A stretch of DNA of 64,000 nt from an uncultured Gemmatimonadales bacterium. GTDB taxonomy: Bacteria > Gemmatimonadota > Gemmatimonadetes > Gemmatimonadales > GWC2-71-9. Positions 25,324 to 47,293 of the stretch are shown here, piece by piece. Below the pieces are notes generated by a model. It saw only the letters and a program-made list of their open reading frames with translations, did not search any database and was not told the origin of the DNA. The stretch spans positions 1-64,000 of the forward strand of contig CAWCFX010000004.1 of assembly GCA_963795085.1 (NCBI GenBank), read 5' to 3'. A program made the translations under genes and the position numbers. The number at the start of each line of letters is the position of its first letter. Position 1 is the first letter of the stretch.

Positions 25324-28300
25324 TTACCGCAGCGGCCGCATCCGATACAGCCACCAGATCCGCCGCTTCCGCGCCGGCTTCCGCTGCCTCCATCCCATCA
25401 TCATCGCCGGCACGAAGAACAGCGCCCCGAGCGTCCCCGCGACCGTCCCGCCCACCGTCGCCAGCGCGATACTGCCGAACAGCTCGTCCGCCTTGGTGCC
25501 CACCGCCAGCGGGATAAGGCTCGCCAGCGTCGTCAGCGTCACCAGCATGATGATGCCCACTCGGTCCCGGGCCGCCCACACCACGTCCCGGCCCGACAGG
25601 CCGCGGCGGGACCCAGGGGGTGAGGCCCGCCGCACCAGCGCCGCATCCACCACCAGGATGATCTGGTTCACCGCCAGGCCCACCACCAGGATCACTCCGA
25701 CCGCCGCCTCCCGGCTGAACGAAGCCTTGGCGATCCAGAACGCCGCCGCCGACCCGGCCAGCGCCAGCGGAAGGCCGAGGAACACCATCCCGGCCGCCCA
25801 GCCGGAGTCGAACACCATCATCACCGCCAGCAGCACCATGACGATCCCCAGCGCGAACACCAGCCAGAGCCCCTTCGTGCTTTCGTCCACCGCCCAGCCG
25901 AACTCGTTGTCCGCCACGCTGTAGCCCGGCGGCACCGAGATGGACTGCATGAACGCCTCGTGGGTCCGGTTGGCCAGTTTCTGGGGACCCCGGAACTCGT
26001 AAGTCACCAGCCGCACGTACTGCTGGTCTTCCCGGTTGATGGTCGTGAGCGCCTCCCGCTCGCCCACGCTGGCGACGTCCACGATCCGGGCCGGGCTCCC
26101 CGCCCGGTTGGGCAGCATCGCCTGCCGGAGCTGGTCCATGGTCCGGTCCCGGGCCCCGGCGTCCTTCACGTTGACCAGGATCTTCTCCCCGCCGATCTCC
26201 AGCTCGGTCGCGCCGACCGGCCCCCGAACCTCGCGGCTCACCGCCGCCGACAGGTCGCGCGCGGTGAGACCGAACCGGGCCAGCGCCGCCCGGTCGGGGT
26301 TGAGCACCACGCTGAACGCCTTGTCCCGCTGCCAGAAGCTGGCGGCGTTCACGTCCACGTCCTTGACCCGGGGAATCCGCTCCAGCCGCCGCTTGAGATC
26401 CAGCGCCAGCTGTTCCACCCCCGAGAACGAATAGCCCAGCACCTTGATCTGAAAGGAAGAGGCCGACCCGCCCCCGCCGGAGAAGAACCCGGGGCCGTTG
26501 CCCCGCACCCCGACGCTGGCGCCGCCTACCAGGACGGCGCGCTGGGTCAGCTGCTCTTCCATTATATAGGGCGCCGCGCCGTACTCGGCGGCCTTGGTGA
26601 ACAGCACGGTCATCCGCGCCCCGTCCGGCGATCCCATTGCCTCCACCTGCTCCACCCCCTGACCCCCCACCGCGAGGGCCTCGAACTCCCGCATCGCGCG
26701 GTCCAGGCTGGAAGGATCCGAGCCGCGGGGAAAGTTCATCCACGCCGTGAGCGTGGTCCGCTGGCCATACCAGTTCCCGAAAGAGGAACGGGGGACCTTC
26801 TTGACGAAGCCATAGACCGCGGCCGCCATCAGCACCGCCGCCAGCCCCAGGGTAAACGGCCGCCAGCGCAGCGAGCCGATCACGATCCGGGCATAGGCCC
26901 GGCTCAGGCGGGGCCAGTGCCCGGTGCTGATCCCGTGCCCCGCGGCAAGCGCCGGGATCATCACCACCGACGACACGATGGACCAGCCCAGCGCCAGCAG
27001 GAACGCCACCGCGAAGGGGACGAAGGCCGCCCGGGCATTCCCCTGTAGATATAGAAAGGGCAGCAGCACCACGGCCGTGGTGAGGGTGGACCCCAGCACC
27101 GCAGGCAGGATCCGCCGCCCCGCCCCCGAGCGGCCCTCCACCGTGTCCGGCGCCAGCCGCAGCCGCTCCACCACCACCACCCCGTTCTGCACCAGGATCC
27201 CGATCCCCATCCCCAGTCCCGCCAGGGTCAGCAGGTTGGCCGGGATCTCCAGCAGAAAGAGCCCCAGCGCGGTGCCGGCGATGGCGATGGCCGCGCTCCC
27301 CATCACCAGCAGCACCGACTTGCCGTTCCGGAGCGCGATCACCAGCACCACCATGACCGCGACAAAGGCGATCCCGCCCCGCAGCACCAGGTCCCGCAGC
27401 TGTTTGCGGAGCACGACGCTCTCGTCGGACCGCACCTCGAGCCGGACTCCCGGCGGCAGGATCCGCTTGATCTCGTCCATCGCGGCCCGGGCCCGCGCGG
27501 CGGTCTTGATGGCGTCGGCGCCGGGCAGCCGCGCAATATCAAGACTCACTGCCGGCACCCCGTTCACCCGGTAGAACATGTCCCGCGAGTCTTCCTCCAG
27601 CCGGATCTCGGCCAGCTCCCCTACCCGGAAGATCCGGCCCGCGGGCCCCGCCACCGGCAGGCTGGCCAGGTCCTCGATGACCGCCGGCTGATCCCGGAGC
27701 ACCACCGGACGCTCGGCCGGACCGGCACGGTCCCTCCCCAGCGATTGCACCAGCCGGGCATTGCCAACGGCCTCGCGCAGCGCTTCGGGCGAGATCCCCA
27801 GTTGCCGCAACCGCTGGCCGTCGTAGGTGACCGAGACCCGGACCTCCGCCGCGCTGGAGAGGTTGACTCCCGCCACGCCGGATACCGCGCTGATCCGCGG
27901 CTTGATCTGCTCTTCCGCCAGCTTCACCAGCGTGGCCGGCGTGTAGGGGCCGTACACCGTGTACTCGAGCAGCGACTGCTCGCTCAGCTCTTCGGGGACG
28001 TAGTTACCGACGTAGGGAGAAGTGGACCCGTCGGGGAACTCGGGGCGCAGCAGCTCGATCCGCTCCAGGATGGCGAGCCGGGCCATCTGGACGTTGGCCT
28101 TCTCTTCCAGGTCCACCGTGATCCGGGTGCGGCCGTCGCTGGACTCGCTGCTCACCTTCTTCACGTCGCGCACCGCCTGGATCGCGGCCTCGATCGGCGA
28201 GGTCAGGTAGGACTCCACCAGCTCGGCGGACGCGCCGGGCCAGGAGGCGGTGACCATGAGGCGGGGCAGTTCGACCACCGGCCGCGTCGCGAGCGGGAGC

Positions 28301-28386
28301 CGGGCAAAGGCGAGCGCGCCGGCCAGGATCAGCGCCAGGCTGGTGGCCCAGACGACGGCGGGACGGTGGGCGGCCCAGGTGATCAT
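25324..28386 (-). CDS. RND efflux permease subunit (AcrB/AcrD/AcrF family), subunit 2
   Basis: 1020 aa; WPGASAELVESYLTSPIE; 12-TM RND layout; LTTLASLIPLA. Confidence 0.93.
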   Translation of the reverse strand: MITWAAHRPAVVWATSLALILAGALAFARLPLATRPVVELPRLMVTASWPGASAELVESYLTSPIEAAIQAVRDVKKVSSESSDGRTRITVDLEEKANVQMARLAILERIELLRPEFPDGSTSPYVGNYVPEELSEQSLLEYTVYGPYTPATLVKLAEEQIKPRISAVSGVAGVNLSSAAEVRVSVTYDGQRLRQLGISPEALREAVGNARLVQSLGRDRAGPAERPVVLRDQPAVIEDLASLPVAGPAGRIFRVGELAEIRLEEDSRDMFYRVNGVPAVSLDIARLPGADAIKTAARARAAMDEIKRILPPGVRLEVRSDESVVLRKQLRDLVLRGGIAFVAVMVVLVIALRNGKSVLLVMGSAAIAIAGTALGLFLLEIPANLLTLAGLGMGIGILVQNGVVVVERLRLAPDTVEGRSGAGRRILPAVLGSTLTTAVVLLPFLYLQGNARAAFVPFAVAFLLALGWSIVSSVVMIPALAAGHGISTGHWPRLSRAYARIVIGSLRWRPFTLGLAAVLMAAAVYGFVKKVPRSSFGNWYGQRTTLTAWMNFPRGSDPSSLDRAMREFEALAVGGQGVEQVEAMGSPDGARMTVLFTKAAEYGAAPYIMEEQLTQRAVLVGGASVGVRGNGPGFFSGGGGSASSFQIKVLGYSFSGVEQLALDLKRRLERIPRVKDVDVNAASFWQRDKAFSVVLNPDRAALARFGLTARDLSAAVSREVRGPVGATELEIGGEKILVNVKDAGARDRTMDQLRQAMLPNRAGSPARIVDVASVGEREALTTINREDQQYVRLVTYEFRGPQKLANRTHEAFMQSISVPPGYSVADNEFGWAVDESTKGLWLVFALGIVMVLLAVMMVFDSGWAAGMVFLGLPLALAGSAAAFWIAKASFSREAAVGVILVVGLAVNQIILVVDAALVRRASPPGSRRGLSGRDVVWAARDRVGIIMLVTLTTLASLIPLAVGTKADELFGSIALATVGGTVAGTLGALFFVPAMMMGWRQRKPARKRRIWWLYRMRPLR

Positions 28387-28407
28387 GCGCGACCTTTTTC
28401 CTCGCCC

Positions 28408-28602
28408 CCCGGCCCCCTCTCCATTTCATGGAGAGGGGGAGATGCCGCGGCCCTTTCCTCCTTATAGGGGCGCCTATGAACCCCTCCCCTCTCCACGAAG
28501 TGGAGAGGGGCCGGGGGTGAGGCAGGGGCCAGGGGCGAGGTCATGGCGACGAAGGAGGAGTCCCTCCCCTCTCCACGAAGTGGAGAGGGGCCGGGGGTGA
28601 GG
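28408..28602. repeat. Three REP-like palindromes CCCCTCTCCA(C/T)..TGGAGAGGGG
   Basis: At about 28408-28439, 28480-28522 and 28562-28602. Confidence 0.88.
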
Positions 28603-31600
28603 CAGGCCCCTGGTGCGACGAACGCCGCTCCACCACCGCGTACGCCGTCGGCAGCAGGAAGAACGTCACCAGCGTAGCGCTGATCGAGCCGCCGATGATG
28701 CCCGCCGCGAGCGGCTGGTACAGCTCGCCGCCGCTCCCCAGCCCCAGCACCAGCGGCAGCACGCCGACGATGGTGGTGAGCGAGGTCATCGTGATGGCAC
28801 GGAGCCGCTGCCGCCCGCCCAGCTTCACCGCCTCGTTCACCGAATGGCCCTGCGCCCGGAACCGGCGGATCGCGTCCAGCTTCACCACCGCGTCGTTGTC
28901 CGCGATGCCGATCATCACCACCATGCCGATCAGCGAGACGGCGTTGAGACTCTGCCCGGTGAGCCAGAGCACAATGATCCCGCCGGCCCCCGCCAATGGC
29001 ACCGTCGTCATGATCAGCAGCGGCGTGGTGAACGAGGCGAACTCTCCCGCCAGCACCAGGAAAACCAGCGCCACCGAGAGCAGCGCCACCACGCTCAACT
29101 CGCTGGTGGTGCGCCGCTGCTCGACATCGGCGCCGGCCAGCTCCCAGCTGAGGCCGGGCGGAATGGCGAGTCCCGCCATCGCCTGCTGGACATCCCGGGT
29201 AGCCCGCGCGGTGCCGCCCCGCTCCACCGCCGCCTCGATGACCGAGACCGGCCGCTGGTTCACCCGCACCACCTCGATCGGCGCCCGCACCTCGCGCACC
29301 TGCACCAGCTGACCCACCGGGATCCCCCGCACCGTGGTGGCCAGCGCCGCATCGAGGTCCTCGTTGGCCTTGCCGGCAAACCGCACCGTGATCGGAGTGC
29401 GGCGGTCGGTCTCCCGGAAATCGGTCGCCTTGATCCCTCCGAGCCCCCCCGAGAGCGCCGCCACCACCTCTTCCACCGAGAGGCCGCGCAGCGCGATCCG
29501 CTGCCGCTCCAGCGTCACCTCGATGATGTCCTGGGTCCCGGCAAAGGCGTCCCGTACATCCGCCAGCGTGCGAAGGCCCCGCAGCTTCCCGCGCGCGCTG
29601 TCGGCCCAGGCCTCCGCCTCCGCCGGCTTGAGCGCGCTGACCTCCACCCGCACCAGCCGCCCCTCCCGCCCGATCAGGCTGCCGAACTCCGACTGCCCCG
29701 CCAGGTCCAGCGCCAGCGCCCCCTGGGCCAGGTCCGGCACCGCGGCCCGGAGCCGATCGGCAAATTCCGCGGCGTCCTCCCGTCCCGGCACCGGGATGAT
29801 CAGCTGCGCCGAGCTGGACGAACCCGGTTCGGCGCCGGCGAGGATCTCTTCGTCGGTCGCCACGCCGATCCGGCTGAACACGTTGGCGGAGCCGAGACGC
29901 TGAGCGGCGGCTTCGATGCGGCCCACCTGCCGCCGGGTCTCTTCCAGCGCGGTGCCTTCGGGCAGGTTGAACGCCGCCACCACCACGCCTTCATCCACCT
30001 GCGGCAGGATTTCCCGGGGGAGCCGGACGGCGATCGCGGCGGTCACCACCACCGCGGCCAGGGCGATGCCGAACACGGTGGCGGGGTGGCGCAGGCACCA
30101 GTCCATGCCATGCTCGTAGCCGTCGGCGACTCGGGAACCGAGGGCGGACAACCGGTCGGACCGTCGGACGGGCGGACTGGCCTTCCGCCGTCGCACCATC
30201 ATCACCGGCATCAGCGTCAGCGCCAGCAGCAGCGACGCTCCCACCGAGGTCACCACGCTGAGCGACAGGTCCCGGAACAGCGCCGCGGCGAGGCCGCGCA
30301 CGAAGACGATGGGCCCGAAGACCAGCAGCGTGGTCAGCGTCCCCGCGATGAGCGGGCCGGAGACCTCTTCCGCCGCGGTGCGGGCCGCGTCCCGGTCGCT
30401 GAACCCGGCCTCCCGGTAGCGTCCCGTGGCCTCGGCGACCACGATGGCGTTGTCCACCAGGAGGCCGACGCCGAGGGCCAGCCCGCCCAGCGAGAGCACG
30501 TTGATGGTCACGTCGAGGGCCTGCAGGACCACCAGGGCGATCAGCACCGAGAGCGGGATCACCAGCGCGATCGCGATGGATGAACGGAAATCCCGGAGAA
30601 AGAGCAGGATCACCAGCAGCGAGAGAATGCCGCCGGCCACGATCTCCTGCGACAGGTTGGAGAGCGCGTCCTTGACGAACTCGGCCTGCGCCGCGACAAC
30701 CGTCAGCGTGATATCGGGGAACTCGCCCTGCAGCAGTGCGACGGCGTCGTAGAGGTTGTTGGTGACGGCCACCGTGTTCGAACCGGCGTCCTTGTACACC
30801 ACCAGGCCCACGGCGGGCTTCCCTTCCAGCTGCACCACCGTGCGGGGATCCGCGGTGGTCAGGCTGACCGTGGCGACGTCGCGGAGCCGCAAGGTCCCGC
30901 TGTTGCCCAGCGGGGTCTCGCCGATCTCGGCGATGCTGCGGAACTCGGTGAGCGCGAGGACCGAGAACCGGAACTGGCCCCGGCGGATCGTCCCTCCCGG
31001 GGAACTCCAGTTGGCCGCCTGGAGCGCGTCGGCGATGTTCTCGGGAGAGAGTCCCAGGTTGCGGAGCCGGTCGGGTTCCGCTTCCACCCGGATCTCGTCC
31101 TCCGGCGCACCCACCACCGCGACGCTGGCTACGCCGTCCAGCTGCTCCAGCCTTCGGGCATGCACTTCGGCGGCGGTCCGCGCGATGGAGCGCAGGTCGC
31201 CCGGGCCGGTGAGGCCCAGCATCGCGATGGGTCGCTGTCCCGGGTCGCTGGTGAGCAGCGTGGGCCGCTCGGCCCGCTCCGGCAGCTGGCCGCGGATGTT
31301 GTCCAGCCGTTCGCGGACGTTGAGCACCGTGGACGGCATGTCGGTGCCCCAGGCAAACCGGGCGGTGGTGGTCACCTCCTCGTTCCGGCTCACCGAGCGC
31401 AGCTCCACCAGCCCTGGCGTCGCGGCGATGGCCTGTTCGATCGGCTCGGCTACCAGGCGCGACGCTTCGGCGGCGGCGGAGCCGGGGTAGCTGGTACGGA
31501 CCGTGAGAACGGGAAGGGTGACGTCGGGGAGCAGCGAGACCGGGAGCCGGGAGAGCGACACGGCGCCCACCAGCACCAGGGCGAGCACCGTGGCGACGGT

Positions 31601-31639
31601 GGTGACGGGGCGCCGGATGGCATAGGAGCTTAGCGACAA
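28541..31639 (-). CDS. RND efflux permease subunit (AcrB/AcrD/AcrF family), subunit 1
   Basis: 1032 aa; IRRPVTT, YPGSAAAE, LLVDNAIVV, RLRAITMTSLTT. Confidence 0.95.
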   Translation of the reverse strand: MSLSSYAIRRPVTTVATVLALVLVGAVSLSRLPVSLLPDVTLPVLTVRTSYPGSAAAEASRLVAEPIEQAIAATPGLVELRSVSRNEEVTTTARFAWGTDMPSTVLNVRERLDNIRGQLPERAERPTLLTSDPGQRPIAMLGLTGPGDLRSIARTAAEVHARRLEQLDGVASVAVVGAPEDEIRVEAEPDRLRNLGLSPENIADALQAANWSSPGGTIRRGQFRFSVLALTEFRSIAEIGETPLGNSGTLRLRDVATVSLTTADPRTVVQLEGKPAVGLVVYKDAGSNTVAVTNNLYDAVALLQGEFPDITLTVVAAQAEFVKDALSNLSQEIVAGGILSLLVILLFLRDFRSSIAIALVIPLSVLIALVVLQALDVTINVLSLGGLALGVGLLVDNAIVVAEATGRYREAGFSDRDAARTAAEEVSGPLIAGTLTTLLVFGPIVFVRGLAAALFRDLSLSVVTSVGASLLLALTLMPVMMVRRRKASPPVRRSDRLSALGSRVADGYEHGMDWCLRHPATVFGIALAAVVVTAAIAVRLPREILPQVDEGVVVAAFNLPEGTALEETRRQVGRIEAAAQRLGSANVFSRIGVATDEEILAGAEPGSSSSAQLIIPVPGREDAAEFADRLRAAVPDLAQGALALDLAGQSEFGSLIGREGRLVRVEVSALKPAEAEAWADSARGKLRGLRTLADVRDAFAGTQDIIEVTLERQRIALRGLSVEEVVAALSGGLGGIKATDFRETDRRTPITVRFAGKANEDLDAALATTVRGIPVGQLVQVREVRAPIEVVRVNQRPVSVIEAAVERGGTARATRDVQQAMAGLAIPPGLSWELAGADVEQRRTTSELSVVALLSVALVFLVLAGEFASFTTPLLIMTTVPLAGAGGIIVLWLTGQSLNAVSLIGMVVMIGIADNDAVVKLDAIRRFRAQGHSVNEAVKLGGRQRLRAITMTSLTTIVGVLPLVLGLGSGGELYQPLAAGIIGGSISATLVTFFLLPTAYAVVERRSSHQGPASPPAPLHFVERGGTPPSSP

Positions 31640-31647
31640 ACCCTGAG

Positions 31648-31804
31648 CCCCTGTCCCCCTTCCCCGGACCGGGGAAGGGGGAACTGACCGCAGGGTACCC
31701 GAAACGCATCCGTCATCACTCGAATGATTCTCCTCCGGGTCCCCCCTTCCCCTGTCCAGGGGAAGGGGACGGGGGTTGGGGATCCTGTCCAGGAGAGGGG
31801 GACG
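31648..31804. repeat. REP-like palindromes CCCCTTCCCC..GGGGAAGGGG
   Basis: Same family as those at 8030, 16438 and 17711. Confidence 0.8.
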
Positions 31805-31834
31805 GGGGTCTGTGCCCCTGTAATGGGACTGGGG

Positions 31835-32956
31835 TCAGGGCTGCTCGCGTGCCGAAACGACTCGCACCGGCGCGCCATGGGTCAGCGTCAGGTGTCCCTC
31901 GATCAGCACCGTGTCGCCGGCGGCGACGGGGATCTGGCCCGTCACCGAGTCGGGGAGCACTTCGGTCTCGGACCCGTTGCTCAGGCCCGGCAGGATGTAC
32001 ACCCACTCGGCGGTGCTGTTGCGGACCACGAAGACCAGGGGCCGGCCGTCGCGCTCGATCACCGCGCGGGAGGGCACGATGGTCCGGCCGGACAGGCGGT
32101 TGGCTTCGAGCCGGACGTCGGCGTACATCCCGGGGCGGAGGTTGCCGTTGTTGCGGGCGCGGATCAGGGCCCGGCCGGCCCGCTTCACGCTGTCGATCAT
32201 CGGGAGCACGGCGCTGACCCGGCCGTACACCGGCCGCCCCGGCGACGCGGCCGCCGTGATCACCGCTTCGCCGCCGACCCTGATCAGCGGCAGGTCGTGC
32301 TCCAGGATCTGCGCCTCGATCCGGAGGTTGGTCACGTCCACCACGGACGCGATGTCCTCACCGCCGTTCACCCGCTCGCCGGCGGCCACGTTCACCTCGT
32401 CCACGATCCCGTCGAAGGGCGCTTCGATCGTGGCCCGCTCCTGGTCCAGCTTCGCCTTCTCGAGCCGGATCCGCGCCGCGGTGACACCAGCGCGGGACTC
32501 CGCATTCTTTCGCCGGTCTTCCGGCACCGCGCGGCCGGTGGCGATCGAGTCGGGCACGATGTAGTCCCGGTAGGCGATCATCGCCTGTTCCAGCGAGGCT
32601 TCGGCCTCCCGCACCGCGATGTCGAAGGGCCGGGGGTCCAGCTTCACCAGCGTTTCGCCTTTTCGCACCATCGCGCCGGGGCGCACCAGCACCTCCGTCA
32701 CCGTTCCGCTCAGCTCGGCCTTGAGTTGGGCATAGGCATCGGACTGGACCTGGCCGGTGGTGACCACCGAGAGCACCAGGTCTCCGCGGCGCACCTCGGC
32801 GCCAGCCACGGGAAGGGACATCCCCGAGCTGTCGCCGGCGGCGGCCGCGGAGTCGGCGGGCGCTCCTTCGGCACCGGCGTCCTTGCCCTTGCAGGCGGGG
32901 AAGAGGGCGAGTGCGCCGAGGAGTGCGGCTATATGGGTCCGCGGGAGAGGCGTCAT
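31835..32956 (-). CDS. RND periplasmic adaptor (membrane fusion protein), lipoprotein
   Basis: LFPAC lipobox; G.V.EVLVRPG..V.KGETLVKLD; IEAPFDGIV; LRPGMYA. Confidence 0.93.
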   Translation of the reverse strand: MTPLPRTHIAALLGALALFPACKGKDAGAEGAPADSAAAAGDSSGMSLPVAGAEVRRGDLVLSVVTTGQVQSDAYAQLKAELSGTVTEVLVRPGAMVRKGETLVKLDPRPFDIAVREAEASLEQAMIAYRDYIVPDSIATGRAVPEDRRKNAESRAGVTAARIRLEKAKLDQERATIEAPFDGIVDEVNVAAGERVNGGEDIASVVDVTNLRIEAQILEHDLPLIRVGGEAVITAAASPGRPVYGRVSAVLPMIDSVKRAGRALIRARNNGNLRPGMYADVRLEANRLSGRTIVPSRAVIERDGRPLVFVVRNSTAEWVYILPGLSNGSETEVLPDSVTGQIPVAAGDTVLIEGHLTLTHGAPVRVVSAREQP

Positions 32957-33051
32957 GTGTTCCGGTCTGATGAGCGGAGCGGTGGATTCGTCGCAGCGGG
33001 ACTCGTAAGAGACGTTCCAGGACACTGAAACGGTTGGCTCTGCCAGCCCGG

Positions 33052-33546
33052 CTACGCGCTGCTGGCCTGCCCGGCGTCGAGGTGAGCCCGGATCCGGTCC
33101 AGCTCCGTCACCAGCGCGGGCAGGAGCAGGGCAGTCCCCCCACGGAGAAGGATAGCACCGGGTTTCAGGTTGAGCAGTCCTTCGAGGGTCCGGTAGATGG
33201 TGGAGGGGTTATGGCCTTCGGCCAGCGCGGCCTGGGCAAAGGGGTCGCCACCCTCCGCCCGCGCCACCAGGTCATAGACCCGGAACCAGCGTTTGAGGAA
33301 GCCCCACCGGGGCAGGTTCAGGGCGAGGAGGTGAGAGCGGAGGGCATGCCGGTCCTTGAGCCCCAGGTGTTGTGCCTGGACCTGGGCGGTGCGGGTCCAT
33401 GAGCGGTCCCGGGCCACGAGCAGGAGGAAAGCAAGCGCCGGCCCGGTGACCGGGAGGGTCTTGAGGTCTGCTTCAAGCGCGGGCAAGACGGGTTCTCGGG
33501 GGGGGGGGCATCTTGTGGAGTATGCCGGCCAAACGAGAGTCGTCAA
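33052..33546 (-). CDS. AraC-like helix-turn-helix regulator (start uncertain because of a G11 tract)
   Basis: AQHLGLKDRHALRSHL and FAQAALAEGHNPSTIYRTLEGLLNLKP resemble the two AraC HTH motifs. Confidence 0.55.
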   Translation of the reverse strand: MTTLVWPAYSTRCPPPREPVLPALEADLKTLPVTGPALAFLLLVARDRSWTRTAQVQAQHLGLKDRHALRSHLLALNLPRWGFLKRWFRVYDLVARAEGGDPFAQAALAEGHNPSTIYRTLEGLLNLKPGAILLRGGTALLLPALVTELDRIRAHLDAGQASSA

Positions 33547-33750
33547 GGCCCCGGGCGGGCATGGGTAGAATCGGACTCCTGATTGCGCGCAAAAGGCATA
33601 GACACCATGGTTGAAGTCGTTACCGTTGGGACCGAACTCCTAACTATGGAGCGTTAGTCACGCCAGGCACTTCAGATCAACGGTACCGATCGATGACGTG
33701 AGATCGTTGTCTGAGGGAAGCCACAATGTCCCGCCCACGGGAGGTCGTCC

Positions 33751-34080
33751 ATGCGAGCTCGCTGGCTTGGTGTCATTCTACTTTCGCTAGGTTTCGTTGC
33801 CTTTCTGGCCTCACGGCCGAACTCACTCAACGCTGAAACCCCATCAACCCTTTCAGGGGCAATTGTTTGCGTAACTCAGGCCGCGGTGTTTGATCCAACT
33901 GAGCTTTCCGGAAACGAAACCTTGGGTGCGATAGCGATGCAGGATGCGCAATGCCCCTCGGGTCAGAAGTGCTGCATTTCAAATCACTGCAATTGCGGAC
34001 AGCCACCTAAGCCCGCATGCTGTGATGCAACCTGTTCCTGCGTGTGCATCCCGACCGGGTCGAATTGCTGTAATAATTGA
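33751..34080 (+). CDS. Small secreted cysteine-rich peptide precursor (109 aa)
   Basis: RBS GGGAGGT; Sec signal peptide (..SLNA-E); C-terminal 42 aa contain 12 Cys. Confidence 0.85.
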   Translation: MRARWLGVILLSLGFVAFLASRPNSLNAETPSTLSGAIVCVTQAAVFDPTELSGNETLGAIAMQDAQCPSGQKCCISNHCNCGQPPKPACCDATCSCVCIPTGSNCCNN

Positions 34081-34202
34081 ATGACTCATTCAGGACAGTT
34101 GCTACGTGCCTGAGGCTTGCACCCAGATCGCTGGGGCATGCCTCAGGCATTCCACTCACGCCCTACTCTCCTTCCACGCGAATCCTGATTCTTCAGCACA
34201 TA

Positions 34203-35315
34203 ATGTCACTTCGACATCTATCAGTGACACTGGCCATATCTCTCTGCATGGGATGCCGTGACGCAGGCGAACTCCGCATCGCGTGGACGATTCCCTTGGG
34301 ACAGGACACCTCCGTCGGATTGCCCGTTTCAGTTTCGGCAGGCCCTGACCGCACTGTCCTCGTTGCCGATGTTCAGCGAGGAGTCCTGCATCGTTGGAGC
34401 CTGGAGGGCAATAGGCTCTCCTCCTTCGGCACACCCGGTCGTTCTCCTGGCAGTTCTATGTCACCCTCTCTTGTCAGAACGTTGCGCGACACCATCATGG
34501 TATGGGACCGAGTGCAGCAGCGTGTCACGCTAATCTCACATGCTGGCAGCTTCTTAGGTATGGAGGAGATTGCTATCTGGCCCGCCAGGGATGGCTTTGT
34601 CAGGGCCTTTATGAAGGACGGAAACTCCTGGCTCCTCTGGCTACAGGAGCGCTCCCAGAAGTCAGGATTAGTCCAAGTCTCAAGCAGGATCATTCAGGCG
34701 AGAGACGTTTACGACACTCTCTCTGTGGCGGCTGGTCCTACCACCGTCGGCATACAGACAGTCGATTCACAGTACTCCCTAACCTTTCGATCACCATTCA
34801 ATCACCGTGCACTCGTCATGTTTGGGTCCCAGACTATTATTGGACTGTCCAGTTTGTCCGATTCGATTGCCTATCCAGGACGCTCTGTGCTTGCTCGAAA
34901 GACATTGGGGTTGGAGTCCATTCCTTCAGACCACCAGCGGCAGCGCGCCTATCGCGATTCAAGTATTCTTGGAATTGTACACCTGTTGCAGGACAGCTCC
35001 AAGATGGTCAACGCGGGAGAGGGGCAACTGGTTGCGCTATTCACCTCCTTCCTGGACACCGTGTCTCTCCCGAGTGTGATGCCGACTTTCTACTCTGCAA
35101 CACTTGATTCGACTGATCACCTCTGGGTCCTTGTCAACGGGAGTTCTCCCGCACAGCTTCAATGGATGCGTTATAACCTTCGCGACACCAGCCCTCCAAA
35201 AGTTATGGCGCGAGTAGCGTCGCGCAGAGTGGTCGATGCATTTGCTATGCCACATGCATTGGTGACTCTTGAGAGTGATAGCCACGGCGAATCTTGGATT
35301 GTCTTTTATGAATAG
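34203..35315 (+). CDS. Six-bladed beta-propeller (NHL-like) lipoprotein
   Basis: LCMGC lipobox; VLVADV..SFGTPGRSPG..P..DTIMVWD; LDSTDHLWV. Confidence 0.75.
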   Translation: MSLRHLSVTLAISLCMGCRDAGELRIAWTIPLGQDTSVGLPVSVSAGPDRTVLVADVQRGVLHRWSLEGNRLSSFGTPGRSPGSSMSPSLVRTLRDTIMVWDRVQQRVTLISHAGSFLGMEEIAIWPARDGFVRAFMKDGNSWLLWLQERSQKSGLVQVSSRIIQARDVYDTLSVAAGPTTVGIQTVDSQYSLTFRSPFNHRALVMFGSQTIIGLSSLSDSIAYPGRSVLARKTLGLESIPSDHQRQRAYRDSSILGIVHLLQDSSKMVNAGEGQLVALFTSFLDTVSLPSVMPTFYSATLDSTDHLWVLVNGSSPAQLQWMRYNLRDTSPPKVMARVASRRVVDAFAMPHALVTLESDSHGESWIVFYE

Positions 35316-36441
35316 ATTCCCGCGGTGGCCGGGATTGACCGCGTGTCTTCTGGGCGCTGGCATGATACATCTTTTTGGTCAGGCTCGCACTGCGCGGGAA
35401 GTGTGGAGTCGCGACAGCTTGCTTCACCCACTCTACCAGGTCCAGTCGCTGGGACTGGTGCAGGATTCCATACTGTGGGTAAGCGACGGTGGCACCGGAA
35501 TCCACCGGCTTACGACTGGGGGCCGGTATCTCGGTTCCGTTGGCAGGGAAGGCGAAGGGCCAGGCGAGTATCGATGGCCGTGGCACATCCAGGTGCTGGG
35601 CGACACCGTTGTGGTCTTCGACCGGCGCCTGCTCCGGCTGAACTTGTACACGGCGGATGGGGCGTTTCAGCGGTCCACACCGATGCAGGTCCTCGACAAC
35701 ATTCATGGACGTTTCAGGGGAATCGCCCGCCATCCGAATGGCTGGCTGGTCTGGACCGACAATTATCCCGCGGGAAGTCCGCGGCCCCACGAACAATCCT
35801 CATTCGTGTGGCTCATCGGCCTGAATGGCACACCGCGTGACACCCTCGTCACCTTCCCCGGGCCCGAGAGCATCATCCTCAGGGAAACTGGTACTTCCTC
35901 CCGAATCGACGCGCCGTTCCAACGGCGACCGTTCGTGCTCTTCACAGGCGACAGCATCGTGATCGGCAACAATGGAACCGACCACGTGACGATGTACGGG
36001 AGATCTGGCCGGGTCCGTAGCCGGGTAATGATTCCATTGGCCGCAAAGCGGGTAACGGCCGGGGATCGGGCCGCATACCACAGCTACCGCCGAGCACGGT
36101 GGAACGAGGAGGTCGAACAGCAGAATTACGGTCCGGAGATGAGACGGGTGTTTGCCGAGCGCTTTGACCAGATCATGGGACTCGTGCGCTATCCATCGAC
36201 CTGGCAACGCTATGAGTTGATGCTCCGTGACACCGAGGGAGATCTCTGGTTTTTGCTCCCGGCCAGCGGACCGGCGCGCACCTGGGTCGAACTGTCGGCC
36301 TCGGGCCGGATCAAGCAACGAATTCTGGTCAGGCACAAGGCAGCCGTGCTGCACGCGGTGATCGACGGCAACATGATGTACAGCGGTGAGTGGGACGAGG
36401 ATGCGGGCAAAGGCAGGGTGGCGGCATACTCTCTTCGATAA
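35308..36441 (+). CDS. Six-bladed beta-propeller (NHL-like) protein
   Basis: VGREGEGPGEYRWP..GDTVVVFD; DTEGDLWF; overlaps the stop of the upstream gene. Confidence 0.85.
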   Translation: MNRFPRWPGLTACLLGAGMIHLFGQARTAREVWSRDSLLHPLYQVQSLGLVQDSILWVSDGGTGIHRLTTGGRYLGSVGREGEGPGEYRWPWHIQVLGDTVVVFDRRLLRLNLYTADGAFQRSTPMQVLDNIHGRFRGIARHPNGWLVWTDNYPAGSPRPHEQSSFVWLIGLNGTPRDTLVTFPGPESIILRETGTSSRIDAPFQRRPFVLFTGDSIVIGNNGTDHVTMYGRSGRVRSRVMIPLAAKRVTAGDRAAYHSYRRARWNEEVEQQNYGPEMRRVFAERFDQIMGLVRYPSTWQRYELMLRDTEGDLWFLLPASGPARTWVELSASGRIKQRILVRHKAAVLHAVIDGNMMYSGEWDEDAGKGRVAAYSLR

Positions 36442-36805
36442 GAAGCGAAGCGCGCCGCCCGCGTTGTAATGTCTGCCCTTCCAGCCTGGAGCCAGCAAAC
36501 CCACGGTAAGCAACGCCCGCGACGGGTCCACGAGGCGGCGAGTCAGACCGCCAGTCGCCCCATACATGGCCAGGTACCGACGTTTGCCAACCGGGGCAAG
36601 CCCAGTGTGGCTGGGGGCTGGGTCTGGCTGATGCTTTCAGGTTCTCCAGCTGACCTCGCGTCTCAGACCGCCCGCTCCTACCTGACCTTGCGAGCCTACC
36701 TGTGGCGTTCAGGACCTAGTGGTCGATACTGGCGGGGCACGGATCTATATCCCATACTGCTAGTCGATGCTCTGGCGCTACAATGTTGTTCGAGAGGATC
36801 CTGCC

Positions 36806-37084
36806 ATGAGAACCATCAGGTACTTCACCGGGCTGCTCGTGCTCCTCGTCGCTCCCGAGGCGGGCCTGGCCCAGGTCAAGGACGCCACGGGTGGAGTGGT
36901 CCCGTTGAAAGCCTCCGCAGTGAGCGAGCACCTCCTGCTGGAGGGAAACTTGTCGTTGGTGCTGATTCACCCAGGCCTGAGACTTGACGGAGTTCTTGAC
37001 ATCCGCCTGGACAATGAACTCGACTTGGGACTTGGCCTGACTGTCAGTCACGGCACGATTCGGCCAAGGCGGCTTCTCGACTAG
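36806..37084 (+). CDS. Small secreted hypothetical protein (92 aa)
   Basis: RBS GAGAGGA; signal peptide MRTIRYFTGLLVLLVAPEAGLAQ. Confidence 0.6.
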   Translation: MRTIRYFTGLLVLLVAPEAGLAQVKDATGGVVPLKASAVSEHLLLEGNLSLVLIHPGLRLDGVLDIRLDNELDLGLGLTVSHGTIRPRRLLD

Positions 37085-37194
37085 GAGGTCGCGGCCAGAT
37101 CGTGGGGCTGCCAACTCTGCGAGTGGTTTGCCACGTACTCTGCGGTGAGCTGTTATCCCCGGCTCGGCGCACCACCCTCGGTGGGGCATCAGAC

Positions 37195-38328
37195 ATGTTG
37201 AGGGACCGCCATCCTCCGCCCATCGCACCTACGCTGTGGCTTCTCAATAGTCTCGGAATGGTGGTGCTCTTCGGTCCCTCATCGGATCTCGCGGCCCAGA
37301 CCGCCCGGGCCGTACCGGCGCTCGCGATCCCCGGTGATGCACCCGGCTACTTCGTCAATCGCGTCGCCGCGATCGCCATCGCGTCCGATAGCAGTATCCT
37401 TGTCCTCGACCCGGTCGAAGCCAGGATCTACCGCTTTGACCGCCGGGGCCGGTACCTGGACGGCTGGGGGAGACAGGGCAGCGGGCCGGGCGAGTGGCGC
37501 CGACCTTCCACGCTCGGCTGGCGGGGCGATACCCTCTGGGCGTTCGATCCCGCACTCGCCCGGCTCAGCCTGTACGCACCGAGTGGGGGGTTCCATCGCA
37601 GCATCCAGCTGCCGGCGAGCGGGAAGGCGGTCTACCAGGCGGATGGTTCACTCGCGACGCTCTCCGTCATGAGCTACGGTAGCGCCGGGATCCGGGGCCC
37701 GCCCATCATCGCGGTCCGGTACAATGCCGCCGGACGCCTTGCCGATACCCTGATCAAGCTGCCCTCGGCCTACCGGGTGCTGGTGTACCCTCTAGGCGGG
37801 CGCACCAGCGTCGGGCAGCAGCCGTTCGAAGACGGCCCCCTCGTGGTCGGCGCGCTCAATGGCAGCGGCTGGCTGGTGGTACGGCGGGACGCAACCGGCA
37901 TCCCGGTCCGGCTGACCCGGATTGACCCCGCCGGCGACACCCTCTTCCAGCGTGCGATTCGCCTCCCGCCTCGGCGACTTACCCGAGCGCAGGTGGCCAG
38001 CGCCGTGGCAGACCTGGAGGCGGAAGGTCCCCGGCAGCCGGACCTGGGGGCGACCATCGAAGCGGCGCTGTACAAGCCCCGCTATCTCCCGCCGATTTCC
38101 GACGCGCTGGTCGGGGAGGACTCGACAATCTGGCTCCGCGGAACCATGCTCTGGGAACAGACGATCCGGTGGCTGGTGCTGGATCCCCACGGAGAAAAGC
38201 TCTTCGAGCTGGACCTGCCGACCGCATTCCGGCCCTTCGTGGCCACCCGGTCGATGGTATGGGGGGCCGAGCCGAATGAATCAGGCGTGCCGGTGGTGAA
38301 AACGATCAGGATCGCTGTCGAGCCCTGA
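37195..38328 (+). CDS. Six-bladed beta-propeller (NHL-like) protein
   Basis: WGRQGSGPGEWRRP..GDTLWAFD; GEDSTIWL. Confidence 0.85.
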   Translation: MLRDRHPPPIAPTLWLLNSLGMVVLFGPSSDLAAQTARAVPALAIPGDAPGYFVNRVAAIAIASDSSILVLDPVEARIYRFDRRGRYLDGWGRQGSGPGEWRRPSTLGWRGDTLWAFDPALARLSLYAPSGGFHRSIQLPASGKAVYQADGSLATLSVMSYGSAGIRGPPIIAVRYNAAGRLADTLIKLPSAYRVLVYPLGGRTSVGQQPFEDGPLVVGALNGSGWLVVRRDATGIPVRLTRIDPAGDTLFQRAIRLPPRRLTRAQVASAVADLEAEGPRQPDLGATIEAALYKPRYLPPISDALVGEDSTIWLRGTMLWEQTIRWLVLDPHGEKLFELDLPTAFRPFVATRSMVWGAEPNESGVPVVKTIRIAVEP

Positions 38329-38410
38329 GGGCGCCGAGTCAAGGCTGCGAACTCTGCGAGTTGTTTGCCGCGTACCGACACACTGCACTCTGCACTCTGC
38401 ACTCTGCACT

Positions 38411-38707
38411 CTATCTCACCTGCGCCCCCGGCATCGGGTGAATCTCGAAGCTGAAGCCGGCCTGCGACTGGATCGCCGGGTCCTCCCCGGCGAATCCCTG
38501 CATCGTGGACTCGTCCTCGGCCTCGACCACCGCGATGCCGTAGGTGCCCTTCGGGTCCATCACCGGCCCGTACGCCACCACCGAGCCCGCCTGGATCAGC
38601 CCGGCCCAGTAGCCGAAATGCGCCTGCATGATGCCGCCCTCGGCCTCGGTCATGTCCGTCGGAAAACTCGGCCGCGGCGGGAGAAGCTTGTAGAGGAAAT
38701 AGTTCAC
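38411..38707 (-). CDS. YciI family protein
   Basis: MQAHFGYW..GPVMDPKGTYGIAVV..EDPA. Confidence 0.85.
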   Translation of the reverse strand: MNYFLYKLLPPRPSFPTDMTEAEGGIMQAHFGYWAGLIQAGSVVAYGPVMDPKGTYGIAVVEAEDESTMQGFAGEDPAIQSQAGFSFEIHPMPGAQVR

Positions 38708-38842
38708 GTGAAATCCCTTGACATGGTTCAGAGAAAAGCACACCGCCGAGTTCGCAGAAGAGGCGCCGAGTTCGCAGTTGACTCCGACGCCGGTGCGGCC
38801 TCTGCGTATGCTGTTGCAGTGCTACAGACCACCAGGTTGTCT

Positions 38843-38954
38843 TGAACAGCTCATCGCAGAGTGCGCAGAACCGGTCCCAGAGTTCGCGGTGACTCCGATG
38901 CCGCTGCGACCTCTGCGCTCTGATGTTGCCGCGTACTCTGCGATGAGCTGTTCA
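38843..38954. repeat. Short element with a perfect 20 bp inverted repeat (TGAACAGCTCATCGCAGAGT)
   Basis: Same TIR family as 18925 and 20270. Confidence 0.75.
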
Positions 38955-39015
38955 GGTACTCCCCCGGTCGACCAGGCTGACCTTCGACCGTCAGTCGGCA
39001 ATCGGCAATCGGCAA

Positions 39016-40155
39016 TTACAGTTTGTATCTCTCCAGGTGCTGCAGATCATCCCGATCGGTCTGCCGGAGATAGATCACCCCGTTCCCGAACCCCACCATC
39101 CGCCGGCCGGCCGGGAGCAGCACCTGCGTCTTGAATTGGCCGCCCGCGTCGAACACGTCCATCACCCGCGGCGCACCCGCCGGCACGCTCCGCTCCACCC
39201 AGGCCTCGCCGGCCGGGGATACCCACACCGCCGAGAACACCGGCTTCACCGCCGGCCACTCGGTCTCCGCGATGGCGTTCTCCTCGGCGTCCTCCGCCCG
39301 CCCGCCCCGGCCAAACGACATGCTCACCTGGCCGTTCCGGTTCTCCATGTTGACGCTGAGCGCGTTGGACAGGTCGGCCACGTACTCCCGCTTGTCCGGG
39401 TCGCGCACCGGCACCGGGGCGACCCGCACCGGCGTGCCGCGCACCACGCGGCCGTCCGGGGTGACCCAGTCCACCCGGTACTCCTGCCCCCGGGCGATGG
39501 CCACCTGGCCGGCCGGGCCCACCGCCCAGCTGTCCTGTACCGGGTAGGGCCGGGGACGCTGCACCATCCGCTGGTTGTTCTGCCCGCCCGAGGTCTGGGT
39601 GTTCATCTCGGGGAGCTTCACCTTCGCCACGGTATCGAAGGCGGAGCGGGCCCGGTCCCAGCGGACCACCACCGCCGAATCGGGGATACGGCCGCCCATG
39701 CCGGGCTGGAAATATACCCGGCCCTGCGCATCCACACCGCGAGGCAGGATCATCATCATTCGGGGCGGGCTTCCCACCGCGATCGGCGCCGACTCGCGGT
39801 ACTTGCCGTCCGCCGCGAGATAGTTGAGCCGCGCGTTGCCCAGGTCCATGAGCAGCGTACCGCCGCCCGGCAGCGGGAACAGCGCATCGGGCGCCTTGTA
39901 CTCGCCCGGCCCCTGGCCCACCCGTCCCAGCGTTTCCCCCCGGCCCGTCTTGAAATCGGCGAGCATCAGCACCTCGTCGATGCCGTCCGCCACCAGCACT
40001 CGACCGTCGGGAAGCTCCCGGAGCCCGCGAATGGAACTGAAAGCGTGGGGGAACCGGGCGTCGGCGGCCGTCAGCCGGCGCTCGGGGACCTGCTGGGCCG
40101 CCGCCGGGAGGGCGAGGATGACAGCCGCGGCCGCCAGCAGAAAGGTTCGCATCAT
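39016..40155 (-). CDS. Six-bladed beta-propeller secreted protein
   Basis: Signal peptide; RELPDGRVLVAD..GRVGQGPGEYKAP; VGFGNGVIYL. Confidence 0.88.
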   Translation of the reverse strand: MMRTFLLAAAAVILALPAAAQQVPERRLTAADARFPHAFSSIRGLRELPDGRVLVADGIDEVLMLADFKTGRGETLGRVGQGPGEYKAPDALFPLPGGGTLLMDLGNARLNYLAADGKYRESAPIAVGSPPRMMMILPRGVDAQGRVYFQPGMGGRIPDSAVVVRWDRARSAFDTVAKVKLPEMNTQTSGGQNNQRMVQRPRPYPVQDSWAVGPAGQVAIARGQEYRVDWVTPDGRVVRGTPVRVAPVPVRDPDKREYVADLSNALSVNMENRNGQVSMSFGRGGRAEDAEENAIAETEWPAVKPVFSAVWVSPAGEAWVERSVPAGAPRVMDVFDAGGQFKTQVLLPAGRRMVGFGNGVIYLRQTDRDDLQHLERYKL

Positions 40156-40211
40156 GATGGTCTTCCCGGTTGGAGATGAACAACAAAATTACAAATTGCA
40201 AATTACAAATC

Positions 40212-41354
40212 TTAAATTGTATAACTTTCCAGCCACTGAATATCGTCGCCGTCCGTCCGCACCAGGTACACGCTGTTCTTCCCGAAGCCGGCGATCCGCC
40301 GGTCCCGGGGCAGGGTCACGGTACGCACGAAGGTACCCTGCTGGTCGAAGACGTCCACCGTGGGCACCGGGTCGCCGCCCCGGCGGGAGCGCAGCAGCCA
40401 GAGCTGGCCATTGGGCGCGACCCATGCACTGTTCCGCCCGGGGAAGGGCGGCTTGAACCCGGGGTACTGGGGCGCCGGCATGTTCACCGTCGGGGGGGGC
40501 CCCGATGCCCCGGGGCCACTCCCGAACGTTACCCGCGGAGCACCCTGGGCCCTCTGCTGTGACTCGCGGTCGGCATCGTTCACCCGGACCGGCTGGTGGC
40601 GATTGACCGGCCCGGAGGTCCGCTGCTTCGCCGGAGAATACCAGTCCACATGGAAATCCGTTACGCGCGCCACCGCCATCCGGCCATCGGCGCCCACCGC
40701 CCAGGTGTCTTCGGGGCTGAACGGCTCCGGCCGCATCATCATCATGCGGCCCTGCCCGGAGCTGGATGTCCGCATGGTCATGGCGGTGATCTTGAGGAAG
40801 GTCACGGTATCCACCGTCGCCCGCCGCCGGTCCCACCGCAGCACCGGCACCGAGTCGGGCGGTGATGCCATGCTGCCCGGCCCGCCCGGCGGGATCAGGC
40901 TTCCCCGGAAATAGATCCGGCCCGCCAGGTCTGAATACTGTGGATCGGCGCCGATTCCGAGATTCTCGGGGAACGGGATGTGGCCGCCGGCCTTGCCGTT
41001 CGGCAGGATGATGAGAAAGCGGCGGTTCGACGGGTCCACCAACAAGGTTGAGTCTCCCGCCAGAGGCAGCAGCGCCCCGGGAAACGAGTACTCGCCGGGG
41101 CCCTGGCCCTCGCGCCCGACCCGCACCGCCGTGCCCGCGGTGAGGTCGAGCAACTGGACCGTTTTCTCCCCCGGATCGGCCACCAGGACCCTGCCGTTGG
41201 AGAGTTCCCGGATGGACCCGACATTGGTGAATCCGTCGGCGGACTGGGCCGTCGGCCGGCCCAGCGAAGGCCCGCCGGCCCGCTGCTGCGCCTGGCCAGT
41301 TGAATAGGGAACCGCACAGATACACGCGAATAGCAGAAACGACCCGGCCCGCAT
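40212..41354 (-). CDS. Six-bladed beta-propeller secreted protein, paralog of 39016-40155
   Basis: RELSNGRVLVAD..GREGQGPGEYSFP; AGFGKNSVYL. Confidence 0.88.
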   Translation of the reverse strand: MRAGSFLLFACICAVPYSTGQAQQRAGGPSLGRPTAQSADGFTNVGSIRELSNGRVLVADPGEKTVQLLDLTAGTAVRVGREGQGPGEYSFPGALLPLAGDSTLLVDPSNRRFLIILPNGKAGGHIPFPENLGIGADPQYSDLAGRIYFRGSLIPPGGPGSMASPPDSVPVLRWDRRRATVDTVTFLKITAMTMRTSSSGQGRMMMMRPEPFSPEDTWAVGADGRMAVARVTDFHVDWYSPAKQRTSGPVNRHQPVRVNDADRESQQRAQGAPRVTFGSGPGASGPPPTVNMPAPQYPGFKPPFPGRNSAWVAPNGQLWLLRSRRGGDPVPTVDVFDQQGTFVRTVTLPRDRRIAGFGKNSVYLVRTDGDDIQWLESYTI

Positions 41355-43681: not shown

Positions 43682-43712
43682 GCAAACCCTTTTCCCCCCA
43701 TGGGGTTCTCAT
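43682..43712 (+). promoter_or_regulatory. Putative ECF sigma promoter
   Basis: GCAAACC-N16-GTTCTCAT upstream of the ECF gene; matches 47263-47293. Confidence 0.55.
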
Positions 43713-43732
43713 CCCTGAAGGCAGCCACACGA

Positions 43733-44296
43733 ATGATTCCCGGGAGTGCCGTGACTGAGCAGAGCCTGATCCAGCGGGTCCTGGAGGGAGATCCTGGCGC
43801 CGAGCGCGAGCTGTACGACGCGTACGTGGACCGGGTCTTCCGGCTGGCCTACCGGATGGCCGGGGAGAGCGACCTGGCCCAGGACTTCGTCCAGGAGACC
43901 TTCATCAAGGTGTTCGGCCGGCTCAGCACCTTCCGGGGCGAGTCGGCGCTGGGAACCTGGATCACCTCGATCGCGATCTCGGTGGCGCTCAACGGGCTCC
44001 GGAAGGTGAAGCGGTTCCACCAGCGGGAAGCCAACCTTGAGGAAGCGGCGCTGGTCACAGGAGGGAGCAGCCGGCGCCCCGAGCCGGACCTCAAGAGCAG
44101 GATGCGGGAGGCGATCAGCCGGCTGCCGGAAGGGTACCGAACGGTGTTCGTGATGCATGACATGGAAGGCTATACCCACGAGGAGATCGGGACCGCGCTC
44201 GGGGTGCAGCCGGGGACTTCGAAAGCACAATTGTTCCGCGCCCGCGCCCGGTTGCGCGAAGCGCTCGCGGATTTCGCGGGAGAGACGGCGATATGA
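43733..44296 (+). CDS. ECF RNA polymerase sigma factor
   Basis: AQDFVQETFIK, FRGESALGTWI, LPEGYRTVFVMHDMEGYTHEEIG..GTSKAQLFRAR. Confidence 0.95.
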   Translation: MIPGSAVTEQSLIQRVLEGDPGAERELYDAYVDRVFRLAYRMAGESDLAQDFVQETFIKVFGRLSTFRGESALGTWITSIAISVALNGLRKVKRFHQREANLEEAALVTGGSSRRPEPDLKSRMREAISRLPEGYRTVFVMHDMEGYTHEEIGTALGVQPGTSKAQLFRARARLREALADFAGETAI

Positions 44297-44922: not shown

Positions 44923-44937
44923 GGAGAGTAAACAGCC

Positions 44938-47129: not shown

Positions 47130-47262
47130 AACGATGGACGGTCCAGTAGAACGATTGCCGGTAATGAAGGGAAGGCCGGCGGTTTGCCTCCGCCGGCCTT
47201 CGCCGTTTCGCCGCATCCCCCGCCCCCGGCTCACGTTTCACCGCTTCTGCAACGTACCACCA

Positions 47263-47293
47263 GTAAACCTTTTTCCCGTTTCTCCGTTCTAAT
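47263..47293 (+). promoter_or_regulatory. Putative ECF sigma promoter
   Basis: GTAAACC-N16-GTTCTAAT, same spacing as 43682-43712. Confidence 0.55.

Follow-up and report, generated by a model that had tools for sequence, protein, structure and literature searches.

Two conserved pairings at one Gemmatimonadales locus: propellers with two-permease RND pumps, and propellers with a rare cysteine-rich protein predicted to be exported

Few bacterial machines have been studied as closely as the resistance-nodulation-division (RND) pumps, of which the MdtABC/MuxABC type has two different permeases. In the Bacteroidota, NVEALA loci carry small exported proteins ahead of tandem DUF5128-like propellers. 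The locus analysed here lies in the first 64 kb of contig 4 (CAWCFX010000004.1) of the genome of an uncultured Gemmatimonadales bacterium (assembly GCA_963795085.1; 3.89 Mb, 67% GC, 6 contigs), and this whole stretch of 64,000 nucleotides (nt) is referred to as the window and its source genome as G000. The locus combines a two-permease RND pump and its membrane fusion protein (MFP), a predicted exported cysteine-rich protein of 109 amino acids (aa), called the peptide below, and five beta-propeller genes numbered P1-P5 by coordinate. The adjacency of propellers and pump is a conserved link, as is the adjacency of peptide and propeller, and the locus is best described as these two conserved, undescribed pairings and not as an established single peptide-export system. 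The genes concerned are the following, with GC3 denoting GC content at third codon positions.

25324-28386, minus strand: RND permease 1, 1020 aa; ACR_tran match (E 1.9e-125); the more divergent of the pair
28541-31639, minus strand: RND permease 2, 1032 aa; ACR_tran match (E 2.7e-211)
31835-33025, minus strand: periplasmic adaptor (MFP); TIGR01730 (E 1.7e-50) and HlyD_D23 matches
33751-34080, plus strand: peptide gene, 109 aa, with ribosome-binding site; predicted exported mini-protein
34203-35315, plus strand: propeller P1; divergent; lipoprotein-like signal; GC3 0.58
35269-36441, plus strand: propeller P2; likely start at 35308; L-T-A-C lipobox
37102-38328, plus strand: propeller P3; likely start at 37195; DUF5128 match (E 1.6e-5)
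39016-40155, minus strand: propeller P4; pump-upstream subfamily
40212-41354, minus strand: propeller P5; pump-upstream subfamily

A preliminary description, made from the letters of this stretch alone, had listed two RND permeases, an MFP, a regulator-like gene, an exported Cys-rich protein and five propellers, and all of these genes are real.

Propellers at two-permease RND pumps

The two ACR_tran permeases and the MFP occupy one operon, which places the pump among the two-permease RND systems. Orthologues of permease 1 in related genomes are 55-64% identical and those of permease 2 66-72%, MFP orthologues at 49% identity or more occur in 12 of 60 relatives, and the named relatives of window proteins are almost all metagenome-assembled genomes (MAGs) of Gemmatimonadota. 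No OEP/TolC gene is present among the 21 open reading frames (ORFs) scanned between 20.8 and 51.2 kb; an OEP gene lies elsewhere in G000 (C1:686892-688412), beside a MacB-like transporter.

MFP homologues from the 60 relatives led to 15 two-permease loci, which were scored with a propeller profile and the pump proteins. Propellers stand beside the pump genes or between the permeases at 12 of these 15 loci, where about 0.06 would be expected for a 17-kb span at the density of G000 (13 propellers per 3.9 Mb). The preliminary description had made a recurrent peptide/propeller neighbourhood the test of its proposal, and the propeller part of it is borne out. Among nine orthologous operons (MFP 49-65% identical), six carry one to six propellers upstream of the MFP gene, co-directional and directly upstream in L126, L127, L128 and L129, whereas in L121 and L125 they occupy one or both strands; the propeller and MFP genes of L128 overlap at the start of the latter. 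Six paralogous operons (MFP 32-36% identical) all have propellers, which in L130, L131 and L132 lie between the two permease genes, as they also do, with 4-nt overlaps, in L026. Genes of the paralogous type run from MFP through a TolC-like gene and a permease to a propeller lipoprotein and the second permease, with overlapping stop and start codons, and OEP genes were confirmed in four of the six (L130, L131, L133, L135). Lipobox or lipoprotein signals are visible in the embedded propellers. The overlapping codons of the paralogous operons suggest joint action, in which the propeller lipoproteins would probably serve alongside the pump in the periplasm.

The pairing is also visible from the side of the propellers, as 10 of 79 propeller-centred loci of species-representative genomes have RND or MFP genes within 6 kb, and propeller-pump loci occur outside the phylum, in a Melioribacteraceae MAG and in Fodinibius. 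Among the RND loci of G000, propellers accompany the two-permease one alone; the distance from either single-permease locus to the nearest propeller exceeds 165 kb. For the propellers, a merely incidental adjacency to the pump was considered and is overturned by the RND-locus and propeller-centred counts. DUF5916 proteins, by comparison, do not recur at pumps: none of the 15 RND loci has one, and a single one of the 79 propeller loci does. The literature searched yielded no description of propeller lipoproteins as conserved RND operon partners.

The five paralogs align with a common G-x-G-P-G-E motif. Only P3 passes the Pfam threshold for DUF5128 (24.7 bits against a gathering score of 22.9), and P1, P2, P4 and P5 are tied to DUF5128/NHL propellers by alignment, profile and BLAST. 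A profile built from the five recovers each training row at E <= 1e-134 and finds eight further propellers in the 3.9-Mb genome, 13 in total. The fold evidence comes from P2, the one paralog of the five that was modelled, whose predicted structure (predicted local distance difference test score, pLDDT, 89; predicted template modelling score, pTM, 0.85) shows a six-bladed propeller of the NHL type into which, at residues 264-304, a helical hairpin is inserted. Its top Foldseek matches are the NHL domains of Brat, Mei-P26 and TRIM proteins (E ~1e-10; target-normalised template modelling score 0.72-0.74) together with the exported Bacteroides fragilis protein 4raa. P5 and P4 share 35% identity, a P4 orthologue directly precedes the MFP gene in the same-genus genome G001, and P5 orthologues are present in G001, in G002 (also of the genus) and in G004. 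P1 and P2 are 25% identical (E 7e-15); a search of 5.8 billion proteins with P1 returned only P1 itself, and P2 has 55 homologues. In a FastTree phylogeny of 64 propellers, P4 and P5 fall in a starred clade (Shimodaira-Hasegawa-like support 97) consisting mostly of the pump-upstream propellers of other genomes, and six of the eight between-permease propellers share one starred clade. P1 and P2 form a group of their own (support 82) with the propellers of L021, L022 and L023, three contigs that encode relatives of the peptide.

The cysteine-rich peptide and its propellers

The peptide gene has a ribosome-binding site, GGGAGG, 6 nt before its ATG, and encodes a signal-peptide-like N-terminus, an N-terminal part of about 40 aa and a 42-aa core. 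The count of 12 cysteines given previously is right for these last 42 residues, and the protein as a whole has 13, including C41. A phmmer search of 1.84 billion representative sequences found five full-length homologues of 103-110 aa (E 9e-23 to 4.5e-4). Scanning metagenome contigs for the pattern yielded four loci: one encodes P0005, already among these homologues, two encode the new members L022 and L023, and the last is the weak relative L024 (E 4e-4), whose contig of 2.3 kb encodes a lipoprotein with a linker rich in Asp and Thr, has no propeller in view and was scored as a miss. A word-index search of the 5.8 billion proteins gave no match to the peptide, and of 24 places where the pattern matched in 185,579 species-representative genomes, none was a confirmed relative. 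The alignment of the eight family members retains an N-terminal hydrophobic signal, 10 invariant cysteines, the block C-x-C-G-G-P-G-Q-P-x-C-C-D-G-T-C and conserved rather than hypervariable inter-Cys loops; the signals of most members are of the Sec type and not twin-arginine. Database families offer no counterpart: a Pfam search of the peptide has no match at E <= 10, and nothing in NCBIfam, PDB or the Atlas fits it. Judged from these alignments, the 109-aa protein is a real, rare and unannotated family, in keeping with the expectation that its ORF would prove conserved.

In all four known genomic contexts of the family (G000, L021, L022, L023) the peptide gene has a propeller gene on its own strand no more than about 1.2 kb downstream. 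In L021 the two are 76 nt apart, and P2 is 39% identical to that propeller. In L022 a lipoprotein gene stands between the peptide gene and the propeller; in L023 a lipoprotein gene and a pair of propellers come after the peptide gene, and a third propeller, a fragment, lies beyond these. As G000 has 13 propeller ORFs in 3.9 Mb, chance adjacency of peptide and propeller would be below 1% per locus, and the pairing is a conserved link. The structure model of the peptide (pLDDT 58) is too poor for a fold search, and the complex prediction of peptide residues 29-109 with P2 residues 40-390 (scores 0.31, 0.01 and 0.01) speaks neither way on binding.

The flanks of the cassette of peptide and propeller genes differ between genomes, being the pump and P4 in G000, mutM and purD in L022, and rpoC in L023. 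The mutM and purD genes are adjacent in G000 (C1:369685-371734) and split by the cassette in L022, and the L023 cassette follows rpoB and rpoC genes that are 68-69% identical to the G000 copies.

Two further families of small exported ORFs stand beside propellers, one of about 110 aa with 2 Cys, whose stop overlaps the propeller start, and one of about 150-170 aa with 7 Cys. Their ORFs lie directly upstream of propellers in the Palauibacter MAGs L043, L046 and L048 and also in L060 and L084, and the one of L023 (13646-14101) comes after the two propellers. Small Cys-rich exported ORFs picked out by a filter number 7 (one of them junk) in 0.85 Mb of propeller loci and 12 in the 3.9-Mb genome, which is no more than suggestive of enrichment near propellers.

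The inserted segment and the weighing of rival readings

The peptide gene and P1-P3 belong to a segment of about 6 kb, 33026-39015, which also holds a regulator-like gene and a YCII-domain gene. Since G001 has P5, P4 and MFP contiguous, with a P4-MFP gap of 211 bp whose spacer lacks similarity to the window, and since G002 has other DNA at the junction, with a MocR-like regulator at the MFP gene, the segment is a derived insertion. The dip in GC that had been noticed over the peptide gene and P1 is confirmed, with 0.53-0.57 across 33500-35500 and about 0.70 in the pump genes, and GC3 rises stepwise from 0.52 in the peptide gene through 0.58 in P1, 0.72 in P2 and 0.80 in P3 to 0.85-0.90 in P4 and P5 and 0.91 in the RND genes. 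The split of mutM and purD, the 211-bp junction of G001 and the GC3 of 0.52-0.58 against 0.9 all indicate, on sequence grounds, that the cassette is horizontally acquired or mobile. The remaining features of the segment are listed here.

33052-33546, minus strand: regulator-like gene, 164 aa; 26 bp upstream of the MFP gene on the same strand
34106-34150, plus strand: predicted RNA hairpin between the peptide gene and P1; no U-tract
36806-37084, plus strand: candidate small Cys-free exported ORF upstream of P3; start MRTIRYF is signal-peptide-like; no family match
38411-38743, minus strand: YCII-domain gene (PF03795, E 6.8e-7)

The regulator-like gene is separated from the divergent peptide gene by 204 bp. 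It is on the pump strand directly before the MFP gene, and in G002 and G004 the pump operon has a homologue at its opposite end, adjoining the 3' end of RND1, so that the gene belongs with the pump and not with the peptide. The AraC-like label is a tentative one. The protein has no Pfam (E <= 10), NCBIfam or PDB-profile match, and an AraC structure was not found with a five-sequence profile, leaving the label without hidden Markov model support; among its Atlas language-model features, whose nearest clusters are from Gemmatimonadota, two clusters bear HTH_18 (similarity 0.96 with 192 shared features, and 0.94). In L107 (G031:C37, 463-1881, minus strand) a homologue is fused to a C-terminal region of about 330 aa in which candidate YVTN-type propeller repeats are seen by eye.

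The hairpin region (34078-34205) folds at -46.1 kcal/mol with a 19-bp stem (z -4.4; 0 of 200 shuffles as stable), and the equivalent gap in L021 has no such hairpin; promoter and terminator signals in a scan are not above those of shuffles. The YCII gene shows no sign of belonging to the module. Repeats resembling repetitive extragenic palindromic (REP) elements flank P3 and YCII, 33-nt direct repeats bracket P3 (37106-37138 and 38343-38375) and a 24-nt inverted repeat pair lies near YCII. Short, partly palindromic REP-like repeats are intergenic at 28400-28604, 31637-31808, 37106-37154, 38343-38412 and 38744-38959, and copies at 83-98% identity are found on many contigs of four same-genus genomes. 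Between P2 and P3 (36469-37084), a 46-nt stretch at 36629-36674 is 74% identical to the P3 signal-peptide region and is possibly a remnant of another propeller gene. Beyond P5, the interval 43700-51194 contains genes for an extracytoplasmic function (ECF) sigma factor and a DUF5916 protein (47342-49990), a pair of HEAT-repeat genes and a sixth propeller paralog (50127-51194). Synteny links the ECF and HEAT genes to L036 (73% and 51% identity), in which an array of five propellers begins just downstream of them and runs into a pump operon. Four soil-metagenome DNA runs from one study contain small shares of the region, and no RNA run is listed as holding it.

The explanation preferred here, which is given an even chance, is that of a composite locus, an ancestral propeller-pump module into which a cassette with a peptide bound by cognate propellers was inserted. 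The ancestral module would consist of exported or lipoprotein NHL/DUF5128-like propellers (P4, P5) directly before, and co-transcribed with, the MFP and two divergent permeases. The low-GC cassette would have entered with the 6-kb segment between P4 and MFP and would encode a Sec-exported mini-protein, probably folded into a knot of five or six disulfides, and its own propeller subfamily, P1, P2 and perhaps P3, whose lipoproteins may bind or handle it. The cassette would be self-contained, because it is also found away from pumps: no pump adjoins it in L022 and L023, and the third other contig is too short to tell. That the peptide is cargo or ligand of the neighbouring pump in G000 is rather doubtful. 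A bolder version is decidedly unlikely, in which DUF5128-type propeller lipoproteins of Gemmatimonadota and neighbouring phyla are an unrecognised periplasmic component of two-permease RND pumps that captures Sec-exported, disulfide-rich mini-proteins and hands them to the pump for outer-membrane release; peptide secretion would then take a two-step route, with peptide/propeller cassettes being swapped at a conserved exporter.

Several observations weigh against the composite locus or its parts. The peptide family adjoins a pump in G000 only, one of its four contexts, and the peptide expected to recur at homologous RND loci is at none of the 15 and in none of the 60 relatives, including the unpublished genome G018 (best non-self E 0.02). 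The lipoproteins directly after the peptide in L022 and L023 have no detectable similarity to propellers or P1, and among relatives the gene nearest to P2 (in G028, 32% identity) comes after a Cys-free ORF. On the side of the pump, the RND-locus genomes are kin, so that 12 of 15 overstates their independence, and no propeller was seen in L122, L124 or L123, the contig of which reaches just 1 kb upstream in the case of L123. Other G000 propeller paralogs are scattered among unrelated genes, and the propeller tree has long branches (P1 2.05, P3 1.7).

The full system first proposed, in which an antimicrobial or signal peptide is released by the RND pump and the propellers serve as immunity proteins or receptors, is unlikely as well. 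Propellers do recur at 12 of 15 homologous pumps, tandem and fast-diverging propellers would fit an arms race, and the hairpin after the peptide gene has a likeness to precursor-gene layouts. A heuristic filter also finds small exported Cys-containing ORFs at the head of arrays, with two paralogous ones followed by a propeller, MFP and two permeases in L125, one followed by two propellers, MFP and two permeases in L065, one followed by a propeller and permease in L103, and one between a permease and the propeller array in L025. These other small ORFs are however only candidates, the L125 peptide being found in one of 151 genomes searched, its own, and the conserved inter-Cys loops and the cassettes without an adjacent pump in L022 and L023 argue against this proposal. 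The idea of a variable cassette plugged into a conserved exporter fares accordingly in two ways, as the segment is variable and the propellers recur, but the peptide family is absent from the 15 RND loci; variable peptide/propeller cassettes at a conserved exporter are a live idea and not an established one. Somewhat more probable, though still an outside prospect, is pure juxtaposition, whereby the cassette landed in a propeller array via paralog recombination without any functional tie to the pump, and propellers stand beside pumps through common regulation or ancestry alone. The junction has three states within the genus, in G000, G001 and G002, the cassette occupies housekeeping sites elsewhere, and REP-like repeats flank P3 and YCII, all of which suit this explanation. 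Propellers between permeases with overlapping codons are hard to explain without shared function, but that argument covers the propeller-pump tie only and not the peptide.

Two further explanations concern the peptide itself. It is quite improbable that a periplasmic propeller enzyme has the mini-protein as its small subunit for binding a metal or cofactor, in analogy to the light and heavy chains of methylamine dehydrogenase or to a binder of the metallothionein or CDGSH kind. The C-x-C and CC motifs, the conserved Gly/Pro loops and a PDB profile search that aligns C-x-C...P-x-C-C-D-G-T-C with CDGSH domains are consistent with such a role, but the CDGSH match is not significant, no Pfam family matches at E <= 10, most family signals are Sec-type and not twin-arginine, and a mature peptide without a conserved Trp would have no cofactor of the tryptophan tryptophylquinone (TTQ) or cysteine tryptophylquinone (CTQ) type. 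Least probable is that the peptide hitch-hikes beside the propellers without interaction or that its gene is decaying. The peptide is missing from the called proteins of its genome in the 5.8-billion collection, where P1 and P2 are present, and its codon-position GC is flat (0.52/0.57/0.52); its frame is however intact with a ribosome-binding site, and eight full-length homologues keep the signal peptide and 10 Cys.

If functional, the propeller-pump link would be a new accessory component for a major transporter class and could open a release route for folded disulfide-rich peptides in Gram-negative-type bacteria. An envelope system found only in Gemmatimonadota is informative in any case, since this phylum is common in soil and has received little study, and the peptide and propellers form a compact gene pair that can be expressed and tested.

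Comparison with known systems

No database family or paper describing the pairing of such propellers with a two-permease pump was found, and nothing relevant to cysteine-rich plus NHL gene clusters in bacteria or to secreted Cys-rich proteins of Gemmatimonadota was among the literature matches listed. In contrast to the precursors of ribosomally synthesized and post-translationally modified peptide (RiPP) clusters, the peptide has by sequence inspection a Sec-type signal and not a cytoplasmic leader, and the earlier statement that RiPP-modifying enzymes are lacking agrees with the 21 scanned ORFs, which contain no radical SAM, YcaO or LanM family. Methylamine dehydrogenase differs in that no light- or heavy-chain Pfam matches occur here and there is no conserved Trp pair. 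Residues 80-95 (33988-34035) align with the iron-sulfur motif of CDGSH proteins, with Cys replacing the His ligand (E 0.21, not significant), and no significant family match links the peptide to metallothionein-like binders. Beta-propeller immunity proteins reportedly have a loose precedent in Tse1/Tsi1 (PMC3391265).

For the NVEALA loci, the peptide has no NVEALA match, in line with its lack of Pfam families at E <= 10; a genome-wide search with PF14055 gave no match in G000, but control genomes were equally silent, and no mention of NVEALA was found in the literature searched. The propellers themselves are closer to described proteins, as P2 has the six-bladed NHL-type fold in common with DUF5128 (PF17170; Bacteroides fragilis BF0058, PDB 4raa) and eukaryotic NHL domains. 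P3 and several propellers of relatives have Pfam matches to DUF5128, whereas P1, P2, P4 and P5 are below threshold, and the literature searched contained no mention of DUF5128.

NHLRC2 and SOQ1 are fused analogues of an arrangement of thioredoxin-like domain and NHL propeller (PMC6107167). A triad of Cys-rich peptide, thioredoxin-like protein and NHL propeller following this logic would resemble the present locus in having a small exported Cys-rich protein beside an exported NHL propeller, but no thioredoxin-fold gene is present at 33.0-39.0 kb or among the scanned cassette ORFs of L021-L023. A second locus of G000 (C1:1090069-1094464) contains two 8-Cys ORFs, a DsbA-like gene (Thioredoxin_4, E 2.4e-11) and broken propellers, and looks like a decayed triad of this kind. 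Its parts, in the coordinates of L020 (C1 1084000-1098000), are as follows.

7892-8062 and 8170-8376, minus strand: the two 8-Cys ORFs, paralogous to each other
8556-8978, minus strand: DsbA-like gene

L020 is an island of 52% GC with an integrase, an IS3-type transposase and restriction genes.

The nearest described counterpart of the pump is the MdtABC/MuxABC type, in which, as in the window, one MFP gene is followed by two paralogous ACR_tran permease genes. The window permeases nevertheless differ, scoring 340 and 560 bits against the NCBIfam multidrug cut-off of 1250 and sharing 27% identity with each other, and the window-type pump differs further in having propeller lipoprotein genes in its conserved neighbourhood.

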